DNA of 64,000 nucleotides from Anaeromyxobacteraceae bacterium (GTDB lineage Bacteria; Myxococcota; Myxococcia; Myxococcales; Anaeromyxobacteraceae): the NCBI GenBank assembly GCA_047602405.1, contig JASGHJ010000002.1, forward strand, positions 1,568,001 through 1,632,000. Direction: 5' to 3'. Positions 25,732-39,436 of the stretch are shown piece by piece. Numbering within the stretch: position 1 is the stretch's first letter; each line of letters starts with the position of its first letter. Position numbers and translations under genes: made by a program. Under the pieces are notes generated by a model. The model worked only from the letters and a program-made list of their open reading frames with translations. It made no database searches and was not told the DNA's origin.

Positions 25732-25753
25732 TGATAGTGAGAATCGTTCTCAT
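25732..25753. promoter_or_regulatory. Fur box overlapping the fur start
   Basis: TGATAG-TGAGAATCGTTCTCA-T: inverted repeat TGAGAA-N3-TTCTCA resembling the Fur box core; AT-rich within GC-rich DNA. Confidence 0.75.
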
Positions 25754-26237
25754 GATGACTCACCCTGGCCGCGCGCGCCCCAAGGTCTCGTCGACGTCCC
25801 GTCAGGCGGCGCTCGCCGCCTACATCGAGCAGAAGGGCCTGAAGCGCTCCCGCCAGCGGGAGCGGATCGTGGCGGCCTTCTTCGAGCTCGAAGGCCACGT
25901 CACCGTCGAGGAGGTGGTGGAGCGCGCCCGGCGGATCGATCCCCGGGTGAGCCTCGCCACCGTCTACCGCACGATGAAGCTGCTCGCCGACTCCGGCCTC
26001 GCCACCGCCCGCCAGTTCGGCGACGGGCAGACGCGCTACGAGGCCTCCGAGGGCCGGGAGCACCACGACCACCTCATCTGCACCTCGTGCGGCGCGATCG
26101 TCGAGTTCGCGAACGACCGCATCGAGTCCCTGCAGGCGCTCGTCGCGAAGCGGCACGGCTTCGACGTCGAGAAGCACAAGCTCGAGCTGTACGGGCGCTG
26201 CCCGGACTGCCGGCGCGGCGCGGAGGCGAAGCCGTGA
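25752..26237 (+). CDS. fur: ferric uptake regulator
   Basis: GLK.SRQR..I, H.TVEE, SLATVYRT, HHDHLICTSCG, G.CPDC. Confidence 0.93.
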   Translation: MMTHPGRARPKVSSTSRQAALAAYIEQKGLKRSRQRERIVAAFFELEGHVTVEEVVERARRIDPRVSLATVYRTMKLLADSGLATARQFGDGQTRYEASEGREHHDHLICTSCGAIVEFANDRIESLQALVAKRHGFDVEKHKLELYGRCPDCRRGAEAKP

Positions 26238-28324
26238 CGCCTCCTCCCCCGCAGGGCGCCGAGGCGCGCGCCGACGGCCGGCCCGCCCGCAAGGATCCGG
26301 GCCTCGAGCGCAAGGAGCTCGTCCAGGCGGCCCGCGCGGTCATCCTGGTGGGCAACCCGAACGTCGGCAAGAGCGTCCTCTTCGGCGCGCTCACCGGCCG
26401 CTACGTGACGGTCTCGAACTACCCCGGCACCACCGTCGAGGTGACCCGCGGCTCGGCCACCATCGAGGGCCGCCCCTGGCACGTCATGGACACCCCGGGG
26501 ACGAACAACCTCCTCCCGGCGTCCGAGGACGAGCAGGTCACCCGCGACATCCTCCTCTCCGAGACCGACTACGTGTGCCTGCAGGTCTGCGACGCGAAGA
26601 ACCTGCGGCGCGGCCTCCTGCTCGCCACCCAGCTCGCCGAGGCCGAGGTCCCGTTCACGCTCGCCCTCAACATGGCCGACGAGGCCGCGAGCCGGGGGTT
26701 CCAGATCGACGTCGAGCGGCTCTCCCGCGAGCTCGGGGTCGAGGTGGTCTCGACGGTCGCGGTCGAGCGCAAGGGGCTCGGGGAGCTCCAGGCGCGTCTC
26801 GGCGACGCCCGCCCGTCCGGCTTCCGGCCCCGGTACGACGCCGTCGTCGAGGACGCGGTCGCCGAGATCGAGGGGCTGATGCCCGCCGGCGGGATCGGCA
26901 AGCGCGCGCTCGCGGTGATGGCGCTCGCCGGGGACGAGTCGCTCCGACCCTTCCTGGGCGGCCGGCTCTCGGCGCCCGCGCTGGCGCGGGTGGACGAGGC
27001 CCGCCGGAAGCTCGCCGCCCGCTTCCCCGAGTCGCTCCGGTTCGTCATCGCCCGCCAGCGCCTCGCCACCGCCGACCGCCTGCACGACGCGGTGGTCACC
27101 CGCACCGGCGCGTCGGCGGCGAGCGGGTTCGCCCGCAAGCTCGGCGGGTGGTCCACCCACCCGCTGCTGGGCGTGCCGATCCTCTCGGCGGTGCTCCTCG
27201 CCTGCTACGGCTTCGTCGGCGTCCTCGGGGCGAAGACGCTCGTCGACTTCCTCGAGAACACCGTCTTCGCGAACTACCTCGTGCCCTGGACCGACGCCGC
27301 GGTGCGCTTCCTCGCGCCGGACGGGCCGGTGGAGACGTTCCTCGTCGGCCCGCCCGGGGTCCCGATCGCGGAGAGCGGCGGCATCCTCGTCGGGAAGTAC
27401 GGCCTCGTGTCGATGGGGCTCAGCTACGGCATCGCGATCGTCCTGCCCATCGTCTTCACGTTCTTCATCGCCTTCAGCGTCCTCGAGGACTCGGGGTACC
27501 TCCCGCGCCTCGCGGTGATGGTGAACCAGCTCTTCAAGAAGATGGGGCTCAACGGCAAGGCGGTCCTGCCGATGGTGCTCGGCCTCGGCTGCGACACCAT
27601 GGCGACCATGACCGCGCGGATCATGGAGACGCGCAAGGAGCGGGTGATCGTGACCCTGCTCCTCGCGCTCGCGGTGCCGTGCTCCGCGCAGATCGCGGTC
27701 ATCCTCGCGATGACCTCCCGCCTGCCGCTCGGCGCGACCTTCTGGTTCCTCGGGACGATCCTGCTCGTGATCTTCCTGGTGGGCTGGCTCGCGGCGAAGG
27801 TGCTGCCCGGGCGCGGCTCCGACTTCATGCTCGAGCTGCCGCCGCTGCGGATCCCCCAGGGCGGCAACGTGGCCGTGAAGACGCTCGCCCGCATCGAGTG
27901 GTACCTGCGCGAGGCGCTGCCGCTGTTCGTGGTCGGCACGTTCCTCCTGTGGGGGCTCGACCGGCTGGGCGGGCTCGCGGTGGTCGAGCGGGCCTCCGCG
28001 CCGATCGTCACGGGGGTCCTCGGGCTCCCCGCGGCCGCGGCCGGCGCGTTCATCCTCGGCTTCCTCCGGCGCGACTACGCGGCGGCGGGGCTGTTCATGA
28101 TCTACCAGCCGTTCATGGACGCCGGCACGCTCACGAAGCAGATGGAGATCGAGGTCATCGTCGCGCTGGTGACCGTCACGCTCTTCATCCCCTGCATCGC
28201 GAACTTCTTCATGATCCTGAAGGAGCGGGGCTGGAAGACCGGCCTCGCCATCGCCGGCTTCGTCGTGCCCTTCGCGATCGCGGTGGGTGGCCTCCTCAAC
28301 GTCCTCATGCACGCCTTCTACTAG
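26234..28324 (+). CDS. feoB: ferrous iron transporter FeoB
   Basis: GNPNVGKS, NYPGTTV, DTPG, NMAD, LEDSGY.PR, GLGC, PCS, ELPP; multiple TM helices. Confidence 0.96.
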   Translation: MTPPPPQGAEARADGRPARKDPGLERKELVQAARAVILVGNPNVGKSVLFGALTGRYVTVSNYPGTTVEVTRGSATIEGRPWHVMDTPGTNNLLPASEDEQVTRDILLSETDYVCLQVCDAKNLRRGLLLATQLAEAEVPFTLALNMADEAASRGFQIDVERLSRELGVEVVSTVAVERKGLGELQARLGDARPSGFRPRYDAVVEDAVAEIEGLMPAGGIGKRALAVMALAGDESLRPFLGGRLSAPALARVDEARRKLAARFPESLRFVIARQRLATADRLHDAVVTRTGASAASGFARKLGGWSTHPLLGVPILSAVLLACYGFVGVLGAKTLVDFLENTVFANYLVPWTDAAVRFLAPDGPVETFLVGPPGVPIAESGGILVGKYGLVSMGLSYGIAIVLPIVFTFFIAFSVLEDSGYLPRLAVMVNQLFKKMGLNGKAVLPMVLGLGCDTMATMTARIMETRKERVIVTLLLALAVPCSAQIAVILAMTSRLPLGATFWFLGTILLVIFLVGWLAAKVLPGRGSDFMLELPPLRIPQGGNVAVKTLARIEWYLREALPLFVVGTFLLWGLDRLGGLAVVERASAPIVTGVLGLPAAAAGAFILGFLRRDYAAAGLFMIYQPFMDAGTLTKQMEIEVIVALVTVTLFIPCIANFFMILKERGWKTGLAIAGFVVPFAIAVGGLLNVLMHAFY

Positions 28325-28335
28325 GAACCCGACCG

Positions 28336-28581
28336 ATGCCCGCCGTCGTCGCCCGCGAGGAGACCTGTCCGCTGTGCCAGAGCCGCTTCGACGCGGAGGG
28401 GCAGGGCTGCCGCCCGAGCTGCCCGATGTCGAAGGGGTGCAAGGTGCTGTGCTGCCCGTCCTGCGGGTACAGCTTCCCGCAGGAGGAGACCGGCCTCGCC
28501 GGCCGGCTGCGCGCCTGGCTCGACCGCCGCAGCCGCGGCCCCGAGGCGGCGCACGCCGGCGCGGGGAAGGTGGCGCCGTGA
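28336..28581 (+). CDS. small Cys-rich protein in the feo operon
   Basis: 81 aa, CPLC..C.PSCPMSKGC..CCPSCGYSF (8 Cys); its stop overlaps the next GTG. Confidence 0.7.
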   Translation: MPAVVAREETCPLCQSRFDAEGQGCRPSCPMSKGCKVLCCPSCGYSFPQEETGLAGRLRAWLDRRSRGPEAAHAGAGKVAP

Positions 28582-29256
28582 GCACGCTCGCGTCGCGCCG
28601 CAGCGAGGAGATCCTGGAGACCGTCTTCACCGAGCGGGAGGAGGGGAGGAACCTCGCGGCGGGGATCCTGGCCGCCGCCCCCGAGGACCACGCCCCCGGC
28701 GCCGCCCGCGAGGACCTCGAGGCGCTCGCCTCGGCGGGGCTCGTCCGGCTCGAGGGCGAGCGGGTCGACCTCACCGACGGCGGCGAGAAGCGCGCGCGCG
28801 ACGTCGTGCGCCGCCACCGCCTCGCCGAGCGGCTGTTCAACGACCTCCTCGACCTCGGCGGCGTGGCCGCCGAGAGCCAGGCCTGCGAGTTCGAGCACAT
28901 CCTCTCACCCGAGGCGACCGACTCGGTCTGCACGCTGCTCGGCCACCCGCCGACCTGCCCGCACGGCAAGCCCATCCCGCCGGGCCCGTGCTGCAACACC
29001 TTCCAGAAGACCGTGCGGCCGCTCGTGACCGGCCTGCCCGCGCTCGAGCTCGGCCGCCACGGGCGGATCGTCTTCATCGCCCCCCGGTTCCACGACCGGA
29101 TGGACCGGCTCGCGGCGCTCGGCGTGGTCCCGGGCTCGACCCTGCGCCTGCACCAGCGCGCGCCCTCCTTCGTCATCGAGGTGGGCGAGACCACCATCGC
29201 GCTCGATCCCGAGAATCGCGCGCGAGATCTACGTGAAGCCCGTCGACGCAGGCTGA
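28578..29256 (+). CDS. DtxR/MntR family metal-dependent regulator with C-terminal FeoA domain (frameshift ~29214)
   Basis: LT..G...A..VVRRHRLAERL, AC.FEH, P.TCPHG.PIP; FeoA-like RL.ALG..PG..IAL..E.A..IYV. Confidence 0.88.
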
Positions 29257-29273
29257 CCCCTGGAGGGGCCCTC

Positions 29274-29322
29274 GCCCCTCGACTCCGGGCCGCTTCGCGG
29301 CCCTCCGCTCGGGGTGGACGGA
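29274..29322 (+). repeat. palindromic repeat family B
   Basis: GCCCCTCGACTCCG-[GGCCGC TTC GCGGCC]-CTCCGCTCGGGGTGGACGG; same frame as the copy at 39454. Confidence 0.55.
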
Positions 29323-29357
29323 CCACCCCTCCCTGGCAGGAGGACGCTGCCCTGAAG

Positions 29358-29373
29358 TTGAGAATGAGACGCA
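29358..29373. promoter_or_regulatory. degenerate Fur-box-like site upstream of the FMN-binding protein gene
   Basis: TTGAGAATGAGACGCA shares the TGAGAAT half-site with the box at 25738. Confidence 0.4.
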
Positions 29374-29389
29374 CCATCGAGATCCGCCG

Positions 29390-29923
29390 ATGACCCTGCT
29401 CCCCGCCCTCGCCCTGGCCCTCGCCGCCGCGGCCCCCGACGCGGGCCGGCTCGCGCGCGAGGCGTTCCCCGAGGCCGAGCGCGTCGAGCCGCGGGAGGTG
29501 GTGCTCACCGACGAGCTCGCCGCGCGCCTCGAGGCGCTCGCGCACGCGCGCGTGAAGGAGCGGCGGGTCGCCTTCGTGGCCGCGCTGAAGGGCCCCGGGG
29601 CCGGGCAGGTGGTGGGCTGGCTCGTCGTGCACGAGCACGTGGTCCGGACGAAGCGTGAGACCCTCTCCGTCGCCTTCGAGCCCGACGGCCGCATCCGCAA
29701 GGTGCGGGTGCTCGAGTTCCTGGAGCCGCCCGAGTACCGCACCCCGGAGCGCTGGCTCGCCCAGCTCGAGGGGAAGGGGCCCGACGACCGGGTCACGGTC
29801 GGCCAGGACCTCGCGCCCATCTCCGGGGCGACGCTCTCCGCGCGGGGCGTCGCGGAGGCCTCGCGCTGGCTCCTGCGCGCCCTTGAGCTCGCCGCGCACC
29901 CGCCGGCGGGAGGCCGCCCATGA
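29390..29923 (+). CDS. exported FMN-binding (flavinylation target) protein
   Basis: Signal peptide; DG.I..V.VL.F.EP.EY..WL.Q..G; ISGATLS carries the [ST]GAT FMNylation motif. Confidence 0.85.
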   Translation: MTLLPALALALAAAAPDAGRLAREAFPEAERVEPREVVLTDELAARLEALAHARVKERRVAFVAALKGPGAGQVVGWLVVHEHVVRTKRETLSVAFEPDGRIRKVRVLEFLEPPEYRTPERWLAQLEGKGPDDRVTVGQDLAPISGATLSARGVAEASRWLLRALELAAHPPAGGRP

Positions 29924-30390
29924 GGCTCCTCGTCTCGCCCGTCGCGTCGAACCCCCGCAGCCGCGCGCCGGTGCGCCTCTACCTCGCCTTCGCGGCGCTC
30001 GCGCTCGTGGGCTGGGCGGTGCAGCGCGTGCGCGCGGGCGGGCTGTCGCCCGCGGAGGTGGACGCGTACTACCTCGGCGGCGGCGCGGAGCCGCTCGCGC
30101 CGGCGGCCATCTGGGAGGAGATCCACATGGGCGCCTTCGTGCACGGCTTCACGCTCTTCATGCTCGGGGCGCTGCTCGCGGTCTCCCCGGTGCCGTCGCG
30201 CCTGCGCACCGGCCTGTTCGTGGCGGCGGTCGCCGCGGCCTTCGCGGACCTCTTCGCCCCCTTCGGCGTGCTCGCGCTGCACGGCGGCGGGCTCCTGCGG
30301 GTCGCGACCTTCGTGGCGAGCGCGGCCACGTCCGGCGCGCTGCTCGCGCTCGTCGCGGCGCGGTTCGGCCGGGAGGCCCGGGATGCCTGA
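29920..30390 (+). CDS. four-TM membrane protein with His residues
   Basis: Coupled ATGA overlap; 'LSP..V.AYYLG' loop, then 'EEIHMGAFVHG'. Confidence 0.7.
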   Translation: MRLLVSPVASNPRSRAPVRLYLAFAALALVGWAVQRVRAGGLSPAEVDAYYLGGGAEPLAPAAIWEEIHMGAFVHGFTLFMLGALLAVSPVPSRLRTGLFVAAVAAAFADLFAPFGVLALHGGGLLRVATFVASAATSGALLALVAARFGREARDA

Positions 30391-30937
30391 TCGCCGGCTC
30401 CTCGCGCACCGGCTGCCGGCGCTCGCCTTCGCGGCGTTCCTCGTGGTGATCGCCGGCTCCGCGGCCGTGCTGTTCGCGCTGAAGATGGGGCTCGGGCCGG
30501 GCCACGTCGCCGCCTACTACCGGGGCGACGAGGCGAGCTTCGCCCCGGCGAAGAGCTTCGACGGGCTCCTCCTCGTGGCGGTGCCGCACCTCGCGGCCAT
30601 CCCGCTCGTGCTCTTCGCCGCCGCGCACGTGGTCGGCTGGGCGCGCGCCCTGCCGGGCCGGTGGCACCGCGCGCTCCTCGCGCTCTCGTTCGCCTGCGCC
30701 GCGCTCTCGGTCGGGGGCGGGTTCCTCGTGCGGTACGCCGGGCCCGGCCTCGCCTGGCTCAAGATCGCGGCGTTCGCCGGCCTCGAGGCGGCGGTCCTCG
30801 CCTGGGCCGCGCTCCTCGTGCGGGTCTTCCTGCCGCTCCGTCACGGGCTCGCGGCGGCCAGCCCGGGCGTCGCGACGACGCGGCCCGCGGAGTCCACCAC
30901 GATCGCCTCGACGCCGGCCTCGCGCGCCAGCCGCTGA
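30383..30937 (+). CDS. four-TM membrane protein with His residues, apparent paralogue of the upstream gene
   Basis: 'LGP..VAAYYRG' loop, then 'VAVPHL...AAHV'. Confidence 0.7.
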   Translation: MPDRRLLAHRLPALAFAAFLVVIAGSAAVLFALKMGLGPGHVAAYYRGDEASFAPAKSFDGLLLVAVPHLAAIPLVLFAAAHVVGWARALPGRWHRALLALSFACAALSVGGGFLVRYAGPGLAWLKIAAFAGLEAAVLAWAALLVRVFLPLRHGLAAASPGVATTRPAESTTIASTPASRASR

Positions 30938-31851
30938 GCCGCGCCCGGCCCGGCGACGAAGAGCGACTTGCCCTGGATCTCCGCCTCGACCGCCGAGGGC
31001 GCCAGCACGGTGACCGAGCGCACGCCCTCCGCCGGGCGGCACGTGCGGGGATCGAGCACGTGGTGGTACCGCCGGCCGCCGGCGACGAACGCGTGCTCGT
31101 AGTCCCCGCTGGTCGAGAAGGCCGCGTCGCGCACCGGGAGCCGGAGGAGCGCGTCGCCGGCGCCGCCGCGCGGGTCCCGCACGCCGACCGTCCAGGGCTC
31201 GCCGCCGCGGGAGCCGGCGGCGTACAGGTCGCCCCCGGCCTGCAGGAGGAAGTCGCGGTACCCGAGCGCCCGGAGCGCCCGCGCCGCGGCGTCGAGCGCC
31301 CAGCCCTTCGCGAGGCCGCCGAGGCCGACCCGCATGCCGGCCCGCTCGAGGCGCGCGTCGCAGCCGCCGGCGGCGCGCGGGCGGAGCGCGAGGCCGGCGT
31401 GGCCGACGAGCGGGCAGGCCGCGCGCAGCGCCGGCTCCGCGGGCGGCGCCGGCGCGTGCACGTCGAACCGCCAGAGGCCGGAGAGGGCCGCCCAGGTCGG
31501 GTCGAAGCGGCCGTCGGTCCGCGCCGCGCCGTCCTTGGCGCGGGCGAGGGCGTCGCAGAGGTCCCCGGGGAGGGGCACCCAGCCCCGGCCGGCCGCGGCG
31601 TTCAGGCTCGAGAGCGGAGACTGCGGGTCCCACTCGTTCATCGACCAGGTCACGCGCTCGAAGACCGCGAAGGCGGCCTCGAGGCCGGGGCCTGCCCGGG
31701 CGGGGTCCACCCCGGCGAGCGCGACGGTCGCGAGGGAGCCCAGCGTCGGGCGGGTCTCCTGGACGAGCCCGGCCCCGGCCGGTGCGGGGGCGGAGGCCGG
31801 GCCGGCGGCGGAGGCGAGCCAGAGCGCGGCGGCGAGGGCAGGGCGCACCAC
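30841..31851 (-). CDS. apbE: FAD:protein FMN transferase
   Basis: S.LS.LN, T.G.FDPT, LGGLAKG.A.D, AGGDL, STSGDYE, RYHH.LDP.T. Confidence 0.92.
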   Translation of the reverse strand: MVRPALAAALWLASAAGPASAPAPAGAGLVQETRPTLGSLATVALAGVDPARAGPGLEAAFAVFERVTWSMNEWDPQSPLSSLNAAAGRGWVPLPGDLCDALARAKDGAARTDGRFDPTWAALSGLWRFDVHAPAPPAEPALRAACPLVGHAGLALRPRAAGGCDARLERAGMRVGLGGLAKGWALDAAARALRALGYRDFLLQAGGDLYAAGSRGGEPWTVGVRDPRGGAGDALLRLPVRDAAFSTSGDYEHAFVAGGRRYHHVLDPRTCRPAEGVRSVTVLAPSAVEAEIQGKSLFVAGPGAAQRLAREAGVEAIVVDSAGRVVATPGLAAASP

Positions 31852-34502: not shown

Positions 34503-35832
34503 GTGAAGAAGAACTTCGTCCTCGACACCAACGTCCTCCTGCACGACCCCCGCAGCATCTTCGGGTTCGGGGACAACGACGTCGTGATCCCGATCTACGT
34601 GATCGAGGAGATCGACAACTTCAAGCGCGACCTGTCGACGCTCGGCCGCAACGCCCGCCAGGTCTCCCGCCACCTCGACGACTTCCGCGCGGCCGGAAAG
34701 CTGCGCGAGGGCGTCTCGATCGGCCCGGAGCACGGCCGCATCCGCGTGCTGACGGCCGAGCGGAAGCTCAGCCCGAACCACGCGATCGAGGGGCACTCGG
34801 TCGACGACAAGAATCCTCGCGGTCGCCCTCGAGCTCGCCGAGCGCGAGAAGGGCACCCCGACCGTCTTCGTCACGAAGGACACGAACCTGCGCATCCGCG
34901 CCGACGCGCTCGGCCTCCACGCGGAGGACTACGACGTCGAGGGCATGGAGGCGCTCGACGAGCTCTGGAGCGGCATCGCCGAGGTGGACGTCGACCCGGA
35001 GGCGGTGAACGCCTTCTACGCCGAGGGCACGCTCCCGGTCCCGTCCGGGGTCGAGCCCCCGCCGCCGAACGCCTTCGTGGTGCTCCGCGACCGCACCAAC
35101 CCGCAGCACTCCGCGGTGGGCAAGTACTCGGCGGCGCGGCAGGCCTTCGTGCAGCTCATCAAGACGCCGAAGGAGGGCGTCTGGGGCATCCGGCCGCGCA
35201 ACAAGGAGCAGTCGTTCGCGCTCGACCTGCTCCTCAACGACGAGGTCCGGCTCGTCACCATCGTGGGCAAGGCCGGCACCGGGAAGACGCTCCTCGCCAT
35301 CGCGGCGGGCCTCCAAAAGACGATGGAGGAGGCCGTCTACCAGAAGCTGCTCGTCTCCCGCCCGATCTTCCCGCTGGGGCGCGACATCGGCTACCTGCCC
35401 GGCTCGGTCGAGGAGAAGCTCAACCCCTGGATGCAGCCGATCTTCGACAACGTCGAGTACCTCATGAACCTCTCGCGCTCCGAGAAGAAGCAGGGGCGCG
35501 GGTACCACGAGCTGCTCGACCTCGGCATCCTCGAGATCGAGCCTTTGACCTACATCCGCGGCCGGTCGATCCCGAACCAGTACATCATCGTCGACGAGGC
35601 CCAGAACCTCACCCCGCACGAGGTGAAGACCATCATCACCCGCGCGGGCGACGGCACGAAGATCGTGCTGACCGGCGACCCCTACCAGATCGACAACCCG
35701 TACGTGGACCAGACCAACAACGGGCTCGTGCACGTGGTGAACCGCTTCAAGAGCGAGCGGCTCGCGGGCCACATCACGATGTCGAAGGGCGAGCGCAGCC
35801 CGCTGGCGGAGCTCGCGGCGAATTTGCTCTAG
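34503..35832 (+). CDS. PIN-PhoH (PhoH2) family protein (frameshift ~34812)
   Basis: VLDTNVLLHD PIN start, (F)VTKD.NLRI.A across frames, RN.EQ, GKAGTGKT, RGRS, DEAQN. Confidence 0.9.
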
Positions 35833-37539: not shown

Positions 37540-39436
37540 ATGGCCAAGATCATCGGCATCGACCTCGGCACGACCAACTCCGTCGTCGCGGTGATGGAGG
37601 GCAAGGACGCCGTCGTCATCACGAACGAGGAGGGCTCGCGCCTCACCCCGAGCGTCGTCGCCTACACCAAGGAAGGGGAGCGGCTGGTCGGCCAGGTGGC
37701 CAAGCGCCAGGCCATCACCAACCCCGAGCGCACCGTCTACTCGATCAAGCGGTTCATGGGCCGCCGGTACAGCGAGGTCTCCGAGGAGAGCCGCCGCGTC
37801 CCGTACAAGGTGGTGGAGGGCCCGAACGGCGACGCCCGCGTCGACATCGACGGCAAGCAGAACTCGCCCCCCGAGATCTCGGCGCAGATCCTGCTCAAGC
37901 TGAAGCGCGCCGCCGAGAACTACCTCGGCGAGAAGGTGACGGACGCCGTCATCACGGTGCCCGCGTACTTCAACGACGCCCAGCGCCAGGCCACGAAGGA
38001 CGCCGGCGAGATCGCCGGCCTCAACGTCCGCCGCATCGTGAACGAGCCGACCGCGGCGGCGCTCGCCTACGGCCTCGACCGCAAGAAGAACGAGAAGATC
38101 GCGGTCTACGACTTCGGCGGCGGCACGTTCGACATCTCGATCCTCGAGGTGGGCGAGAACGTGGTCGAGGTGCTCGCGACGAACGGCGACACGCACCTCG
38201 GCGGCGACAACCTCGACCAGGCGATCATCGACTGGCTCATCGCCGAGTTCCGGAAGGACTCCGGCCTCGACGTCTCGAAGGACAAGATGGTGCTGCAGCG
38301 CCTCAAGGAGGCGGCCGAGAAGGCGAAGATCGAGCTCTCCTCGACGATGGAGACCGAGATCAACCTGCCGTTCCTCACCGCCGATCAGACGGGCCCGAAG
38401 CACCTCTCCATGAAGCTCTCGCGCGCCAAGCTCGAGCAGCTCGTGGGGGCGCTCGTCGACCGCTCGATCGAGCCGACCCGCCGCTGCATCGCCGACGCGA
38501 AGCTCGACCCGTCGCAGATCGACGAGGTGGTGCTGGTCGGCGGCCAGACGCGCATGCCGCTCATCATCGAGACGGTGAAGAAGTTCTTCGGCAAGGAGCC
38601 GAACCGCACCGTCAACCCGGACGAGGTCGTGGCGGTCGGCGCGGCGGTCCAGGCGGGCGTGCTCTCCGGCGAGGTGAAGGACATCCTCCTCCTCGACGTG
38701 ACCCCGCTCTCGCTGGGCGTGGAGACCCTCGGCGGCGTGATGACCCGCCTCATCGAGCGGAACACCACCATCCCGGTCAAGAAGGCGGAGGTCTTCTCGA
38801 CCGCCTCCGACAGCCAGACGTCCGTCGAGATCCACGTGCTCCAGGGCGAGCGCGAGATGGCGAAGGACAACCGGACCCTCGGCCGCTTCCACCTCGAGGG
38901 CATCCCGCCGGCGCCCCGGGGCCTGCCGCAGAATCGAGGTGGCGTTCGACATCGACGCGAACGGCATCCTGAACGTCTCGGCCCGCGACAAGGGCACCGG
39001 CAAGGAGACGAAGATCACCATCTCGCACTCGTCCGGCCTCGCGAAGGACGAGGTGGAGAAGATGGTGGCCGACGCCCGCGCGCACGAGTCCGAGGACAAG
39101 GCGCGCCGCGACGAGATCGAGCAGCGCAACCGCGCCGAGAACCTCGCCTACCAGATGGAGAAGCTCCTCAAGGACAACAAGGAGAAGCTCTCCGCCCCCA
39201 CGGTGAAGGACATCGAGGACGCGGTCGCCGAGGTCCACAAGGTCCGCGAGAAGGGCACCGCCGACGAGGTGAAGGCGGCGATGGACCGCCTCGAGAAGGC
39301 GAGCCACAAGGCGGCCGAGGAGCTCTACAAGACCGCGCAGCCCGACGGCGGCCCCGCCGGCGGCCCGCCCCCCGGCGGCACGCCCGAGGAGCCCAAGAAG
39401 GACAACGTCGTCGACGCGGAGTTCAAGCAGGTCTAG
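37540..39436 (+). CDS. dnaK: molecular chaperone DnaK (frameshift ~38932)
   Basis: Canonical DnaK motifs; ...[19 protein letters not shown]... continues in the next frame to VVDAEFKQV*. Confidence 0.97.

Follow-up and report, generated by a model that had tools for sequence, protein, structure and literature searches.

A candidate Fur-controlled flavinylation module with paired PF27139 membrane proteins in an Anaeromyxobacteraceae bacterium

Here we describe a four-gene module at positions 29,358 to 31,851 of a 64,000-nucleotide stretch of DNA (the window) from an Anaeromyxobacteraceae bacterium (GenBank assembly GCA_047602405.1, contig JASGHJ010000002.1). The module encodes a flavin mononucleotide (FMN)-binding protein, two membrane proteins (A and B, below) and the flavin transferase ApbE, and we read it as a Fur-repressed heme-b conduit that would feed a periplasmic flavoprotein reducing Fe(III) for import. 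In our judgment the balance for this reading stands about even, with heme binding, flavinylation and Fe(III) reduction all inferred from sequence. The four genes claimed by the original prediction, which was made from the DNA letters alone, are real open reading frames (ORFs), and the Fur-like site placed ahead of them is also present, matching 13 of 19 positions of the E. coli Fur consensus. The features of the module are as follows (TM, transmembrane segment; aa, amino acids):

29360..29378, plus strand: Fur-box-like site of the module (13/19 match); in relatives (upstream sequences of L032 and L047) a porin gene follows it, which is absent here
29390..29923, plus strand: FMN-binding protein, predicted periplasmic, 177 aa (FMN_bind, 25.8 bits against a cut-off of 22; SGAT motif at 29822-29833)
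29920..30390, plus strand: membrane protein A, 156 aa (PF27139, 'H..' class; H69 at 30124-30126; conserved E66, small A84 and R127)
30383..30937, plus strand: membrane protein B, 184 aa (PF27139, '.HH' class; H69 at 30587-30589 and H82 at 30626-30628; conserved K34, YYxG and K127)
30841..31851, minus strand: apbE flavin transferase, convergent to the membrane genes as predicted (ApbE, E = 1.7e-67)

The genes are tightly packed: the stop of the FMN gene overlaps the start of A (ATGA), the reading frames of A and B have 8 nt in common, and B and the convergent apbE also overlap, with their 3' ends. The nearest named homologues are Anaeromyxobacter proteins, the FMN_bind gene and apbE of the module are the only ones found in the genome, and a promoter and terminator scan gave no matches. 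A search of sequencing runs listed no RNA run containing the sequence, only DNA runs in which its share is small.

Membrane proteins A and B and their histidines

The original prediction held that the two membrane proteins cannot be assigned to a known family; this proved incorrect, as both belong to PF27139 (Aq_1264_TM), which is precomputed on A (P0001), on a 93% relative of B and on nearly all homologues, and in which the Atlas also places both proteins (score 0.94, 219-223 shared features). The family is uncharacterised and its name carries no function. An older Pfam copy and NCBIfam hold no family for A or B, an Atlas search for A with PF27139 left out returned unnamed clusters only (all below 0.9), and no significant match was obtained when the wide profile was run against PDB sequences. 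The predicted kinship of the two proteins, on the other hand, was borne out: four hydrophobic segments are present in A as well as in B, both proteins have the P..V.AYY.G loop, and their profiles align with a probability of 99.7% (E = 1.8e-25, 162 columns). Further, a wide profile of B and of the HHH class (defined below) recovered A from the genome at E = 5e-14. In a FastTree tree of 185 units the A types form two groups and the B types a single clade with poor support, a topology compatible with one duplication or with several.

A profile search of 1.84 billion representatives found 363 proteins at E ≤ 0.001, and among the 150 of these that were listed there are fusions of A and B of about 300 aa, four ApbE fusions (one of them A+B+ApbE) and one DtxR-FeoA fusion (P0222). 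The units fused to DtxR-FeoA, ApbE or PilZ are found in P0222, P0234, P0253, P0270, P0228 and P0242, and L137 has an ApbE-FMN_bind fusion (L137:7279-8958). More distant PF27139-like proteins, with the match limited to the TM2-TM4 part, are encoded at L112:4759-5415, L114:1055-1759 and L115:4794-5273, and the L112 gene is flanked by a possible porin gene and an FMN_bind gene.

Histidines are the sole invariant columns of the wide alignment (A3). Based on a class alignment of 151 units from the matches listed (fragments shorter than 130 aa and most single units longer than 215 aa excluded), three classes of TM2 can be distinguished, namely HHH (H-x-H, followed by a histidine 13 positions further on), H.. 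(first histidine only) and.HH (last two only). The distribution of these classes follows the gene arrangement closely. Single-gene loci are HHH in 103 of 103 cases, although 80 of these loci were themselves chosen with an HHH query and form a biased part of the sample, whereas two-gene loci have H.. in the first gene and.HH in the second in 27/27 cases (one broken-B fragment set aside). In the A+B fusions the N-terminal half is H.. in 18/18 and the C-terminal half is.HH in 16/18 and HHH in the other two, and the fused alignments contain exactly three invariant histidines. A first metagenome scan gave no matches; AT-rich metagenome contigs (22 loci, many short) show the order porin-FMN-A-B with a convergent apbE, and the seven A genes and one fused N-terminal half typed there are all H... 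One A and one B together thus restore one three-histidine set. The original prediction of a helix with two histidines in both proteins therefore stands for B (H69 and H82, invariant in 107/107 rows) but not for A, in which only H69 is invariant (84/84). A-H75 was considered as a ligand and rejected, being mostly Tyr in relatives and His in 7% of A-type sequences.

Two further columns change with the class. The position of the lost third histidine in A types is Ser, Ala or Gly in 53/56 sequences, compared to 21% at neighbouring TM2 positions, and a Glu three residues before the first histidine is found in 95% of the HHH and A classes as opposed to 58% of the B class; hence, this Glu travels with the first histidine.

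Structural models are consistent with a physical partnership between the two proteins. The model of a single HHH unit has four TM helices and a short loop helix, with a predicted local distance difference test (pLDDT) value of 94.8, and the model of a fused A+B protein reached a pLDDT of 89 and a predicted template modelling score (pTM) of 0.81, the latter indicating that the A and B halves are predicted to pack. The A and B proteins of the window, when modelled as A2B2 with three hemes, weakly support the pairing, scoring 0.57 as opposed to 0.00 for the best control. Among solved pairs, 116 of 157 reach this mark, as do 2 of the 215 mismatched pairs, but those that do so with a score of 0.60 or below comprise only 18 solved pairs and both of the mismatched ones. 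Agreement between runs is at least 75% of contacts, with a partner pLDDT of at least 84. Taken together, the A+B fusions, the strict complementarity of the histidines, the confident fused model and this weak pass support A and B forming an obligate heteromer, probably A2B2. The heterodimeric heme-b-like conduit of the original prediction thus fares well as a heteromer but not as a two-heme heterodimer, since an A+B pair has three conserved histidines, not four, and two levels of bis-histidine heme would require A2B2. Fold searches with the single unit and with the fusion returned generic four-helix bundles only (best Z 9.1 and 10.3, respectively), and Foldseek gave no match at E ≤ 0.001 for either model, a result that shows neither a new nor a known fold.

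The conserved unit, flavinylation and the link to iron

The FMN protein has the SGAT flavinylation motif that had been predicted, at residues 145-148, with Thr148 as the predicted acceptor. Among its homologues the acceptor Thr/Ser is kept in 128/129 proteins and the motif Gly in 129/129, and its N-terminus is short and hydrophobic (read by eye), from which a periplasmic location is predicted. An Asp-to-Ala change in the motif has minor effects according to a review (PMC12052999), so that flavinylation of Thr148 is still likely where the Asp is missing, as it is here (see below). The protein also has an invariant Glu in F-x-E-P-x-E-Y and highly conserved Arg residues, a candidate metal- or partner-binding surface.

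To which genes the membrane proteins are tied was assessed in three sets of loci. The 25 loci of the same bacterial family have porin in 22, FMN in 23, apbE in 22 and feoB in 14; the 26 other Myxococcota loci have FMN in 26, porin in 20, apbE in 11 and feoB in none; and the distant loci, i.e., the best 80 of 331, picked with an HHH query and spanning Binatia, Bdellovibrionota, Methylococcales, Entotheonella, Myxococcota and others, have FMN in 80, porin in 74 and apbE in 58, as well as fur (15 loci), a ferritin-like gene (10), feoB (3) and dtxR (2). The set that is kept together is porin-FMN-PF27139-apbE, with Feo as a local neighbour. The co-occurrence with apbE that had been expected is thus seen, whereas an attachment of the module to Feo is not general. 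In three genus members that have no membrane genes, no match for the FMN protein was found either (3/3). Seven Myxococcaceae-like loci (L095, L102, L105, L107, L109, L111 and L122) have an HHH module beside two unnamed lipoprotein-like genes, with PMT-type and GT2 glycosyltransferases and an FAD oxidoreductase also nearby.

In relatives, the porin gene follows the Fur site and precedes the FMN gene, and it encodes 447 aa in L032; one porin relative matches Porin_O_P weakly (E = 1e-4, under the cut-off). The module does lie directly after the feo genes in the window, as had been stated, but only through the loss of this gene of about 1.3 kb. Both this genome and its sister G073 have a 35% porin paralogue elsewhere. 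In this genome, the paralogue is found at G000:C2:217084-219395, where the genome's top-scoring Fur site is followed by a CCP/MauG-like di-heme gene and then by the paralogue. A different kind of loss is seen in L055 (G137:C17), in which a feo operon is followed by A and a frameshifted B and the porin, FMN and apbE genes are gone, with a distant porin-FMN pair on another contig (C19) of G137.

The proposed linkage to iron is supported by both Fur boxes and neighbouring iron genes. The site at 29360-29378 ranks 9th of the 29 sites in the genome that exceed the cut-off of a matrix derived from the sites of 25 relatives. Counting boxes with at least 13 of 19 matches, 18/20 family loci have one upstream of the porin gene compared to 0/20 coding controls, including eight loci with no adjoining feo (matches reach 18/19, in L044), and 22/66 distant loci have one compared to 1/66 controls. 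An iron marker (fur, feoB, feoA, dtxR, ferritin-like, DHOR or imelysin) is present in 28/80 distant loci as opposed to 1.4% of random 18.5-kb windows of this genome, an enrichment that is indicative only since the distant loci include many kin. The Fur box is better kept as an iron link than the neighbourhood of feoB.

Proposed mechanism, known systems and alternatives

Our preferred reading can be laid out as follows. ApbE would attach FMN to Thr148 of the FMN protein. If the N-termini of A and B are inside, as their basic N-terminal residues suggest, H-x-H would lie at the periplasmic end of TM2, with its two histidines on opposite helix faces, and the third histidine near the cytoplasm. On the simplest reading of the histidine partition, A-H69 and B-H69 share one cofactor, i.e., one heme b held between the subunits near the periplasmic start of TM2, with A-E66, K/R127, B-K34 and the YYxG loop as candidate propionate or quinol contacts. 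B-H82, which is left partnerless in a lone A+B pair, would pair with its counterpart in a second B, related by a two-fold axis, to give A2B2, and the small residue 84 of A would flank this cytoplasmic-side heme and make room for the ring. Electrons would pass from the quinol pool (the probable donor, because no NAD-binding partner is encoded) to heme and on through the flavin to Fe(III) or its chelates. These substrates would enter via the porin (in this genome, probably the Fur-boxed paralogue found at another position), and the resulting Fe(II) would be imported by the host's own ferrous transporter, which here would be FeoB.

Elements of this scheme have counterparts among characterized systems. 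Flavinylation-associated membrane cytochromes include PepSY-like (FoxB), MsrQ-like, DUF4405 and FezC proteins, which are histidine-based and linked to iron transporters, according to Meheust et al. 2021 (PMC8238504) and Huang et al. 2024 (PMC11334425), and the FezC and MsrQ models described there form heme sites by dimerising. Such systems share with our module the combination of apbE, a flavinylation target and a membrane protein whose histidines are its most conserved residues, as well as the Fur and ferrous-transporter links; the module likely works like the PepSY-, MsrQ- and DUF4405-type systems. The module differs from them in its PF27139 proteins with four TM per unit, in having all three histidines on TM2 with an uneven split between paralogues, and in its dedicated porin. 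Searches with PF03929, PF16357, PF01794 and PF14358 gave no match for A or B at E ≤ 1, and these four are absent among the 25 of 49 families listed for 82 relatives. The PepSY, MsrQ and DUF4405 folds are not among the matches listed in four fold searches, an absence that does not exclude a shared fold. The P19/FTR1 iron-uptake clusters with an FMN_bind gene described in PMC8238504 resemble the module in that a stand-alone FMN-binding protein is tied to iron assimilation, whereas the module has no P19 and instead has its own candidate membrane electron donor and a porin.

Two other comparisons concern the membrane proteins alone. Heme A synthase (CtaA/Cox15) also has a duplicated 4-TM unit with E-x-x-H early in TM2, and it heads the Foldseek rows listed for the fused model (E = 0.02, TM-score 0.27, root-mean-square deviation 16.4 Å). 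In contrast to heme A synthase, the A/B units have no conserved TM4 histidine, the conserved TM4 residue being Lys/Arg. Kinship with this family (PF02628) was not supported by hhalign comparisons of the three class profiles with both halves of 17 CtaA proteins (E 0.038-0.63, probability at most 1.4%), in which the positive control, the N-terminal versus the C-terminal half of CtaA, gave 97% (E = 1e-11). In the SdhC/SdhD anchor of succinate dehydrogenase, two related membrane subunits contribute one histidine each to a shared heme b. This is an analogy only, as the partners differ and no sequence or fold match was found, no search having been aimed at this anchor.

Several observations weigh against our interpretation. 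At the level of the locus, the porin gene is gone both here and in sister G073, and the Asp of the full D-x-x-[ST]GA[ST] motif is Ala here and in 23/23 family loci. At the level of the membrane proteins, the E-x-x-H motif of A could equally hold a non-heme metal, and the second heme depends on an unproven A2B2 assembly (three conserved histidines per A+B, six if A2B2), the modelling of which returned no contacts or geometry and says nothing on stoichiometry or heme. With respect to iron, feoB is near only 3/80 distant loci, 52/80 of these have no iron marker within about 9 kb, and Fur boxes are scarce in other Myxococcota (5/20 loci as opposed to 0/20 controls). Finally, many of the 80 distant loci are kin and several of their contigs are short, the Fur boxes were scored against the E. 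coli consensus with coding DNA as controls, and the 1.4% background for iron markers comes from a single genome.

Two alternative explanations, which we regard as unlikely to a similar degree, have to be considered in this light. It could be that the histidines form a non-heme metal site (E66-x-x-H69, the next acidic residue and D110 of A, and H69 of B), the membrane proteins being an iron-binding relay or a permease fed by the flavoprotein, with B-H82 as an inner ligand. ExxH is a classic carboxylate-iron motif, and the Glu of this motif keeps company with the first histidine, as mentioned above. Such a site would also make use of three histidines per A+B with no need for a tetramer, and would sit well with the absence of a neighbouring ferrous transporter from most distant loci. 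However, it would leave the flavoprotein with no encoded electron source, and the conserved Lys/Arg residues at the periplasmic ends of TM1, TM3 and TM4 together with the strictly small residue at A84 would seem to suit a heme pocket better.

Alternatively, the module might be an iron-controlled heme/flavin conduit that serves another acceptor, such as a di-heme CCP/MauG-type peroxidase or an envelope redox enzyme, or that provides a flavin route replacing iron-rich carriers under iron shortage, and we are inclined to doubt this about as much as the metal site. CCP/MauG-type genes do occur in 5 of the 131 loci scanned, and lie between the porin and FMN genes in L203 and L212; DHOR genes occur in 13 of the 131; and the porin paralogue of this genome itself forms a pair with a CCP/MauG-like gene, the top-scoring Fur site lying ahead of both. 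Nonetheless, most loci have no CCP/MauG-type cytochrome, and the near-constant presence of the porin suggests a substrate that comes from outside; imelysin, ferritin-like, fur, dtxR and feo genes are also found nearby repeatedly, in separate lineages. That this genome has only a decaying remnant of the module, left behind by the porin loss, seems very improbable, given that all four genes are intact in this genome and in G073 (91-94% identity), with the three histidines, the acceptor Thr and the Fur site kept and a Fur-boxed porin paralogue present in the genome, even though the porin gene is missing in both and the feo-linked locus of G137 has a broken B and no porin, FMN or apbE genes.

Neighbouring genes and wider meaning

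Upstream of the module, the window contains the following features, all of which precede the module's Fur site:

25733..25751, plus strand: Fur-box-like site heading the fur-feoB operon (15/19 match; 2nd-ranked in the genome scan)
25752..26237 (start approximate), plus strand: Fur-family regulator (from the translation; 218 bits with a hidden Markov model seeded from the same protein; the relative in L102 is Pfam FUR)
26234..28324, plus strand: feoB (TIGR00437, 375 bits against a cut-off of 316)
28336..28581, plus strand: 81-aa Cys-rich protein (from the translation; beside feoB in relatives)
28578..29256, plus strand: DtxR/IdeR-like regulator with a C-terminal FeoA domain (Fe_dep_repr_C and FeoA matches)

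The 81-aa protein is conserved in the genus and is possibly FeoC-like, i.e., an Fe-S or Zn analogue of FeoC. Compared to sister L037, the dtxR-feoA gene (region 28578-29393) contains an additional base near 29214, which shifts the frame of the last codons, and a PhoH-like ORF near 34900 and dnaK near 39000 likewise appear frame-changed; this pattern suggests assembly indels. The genome has a second feo operon at G000:C1:1652117-1655564 (an unknown exported protein, two feoA-like genes and feoB), behind strong Fur sites.

We found no published literature on PF27139, on aq_1264 or on the gene combination of the module, and the three histidine classes and the gene context of PF27139 were likewise not found in the published literature, although the supplements of PMC8238504 and PMC11334425 might list such clusters. 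In the main text of PMC8238504, supplements aside, the words 'porin' and 'FeoB' have no occurrences.

Going beyond the locus, we tentatively suggest, with distinctly less conviction than for the conduit itself, that PF27139 may represent a class of membrane cytochrome b that is new and lacks a close solved structure, built of four subunits with periplasmic hemes held between TM2 helices via H-x-H and with one central heme on the axis. Duplication would have split this arrangement into A2B2, with each histidine kept in one paralogue, and together with the porin and the flavoprotein it would make a widespread, self-contained reductive front end of iron uptake for different ferrous transporters. 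Apart from a few systems, little is known of how Gram-negative bacteria carry out the periplasmic step from Fe(III) to Fe(II) that supplies importers of the Feo type. The module described here is a small, testable candidate for periplasmic Fe(III) reduction across several bacterial lineages, and the strict division of three histidines between the two membrane proteins predicts the residues that pair on each cofactor. If our reading is true, it would add a membrane electron-transfer class to those catalogued for flavinylation.

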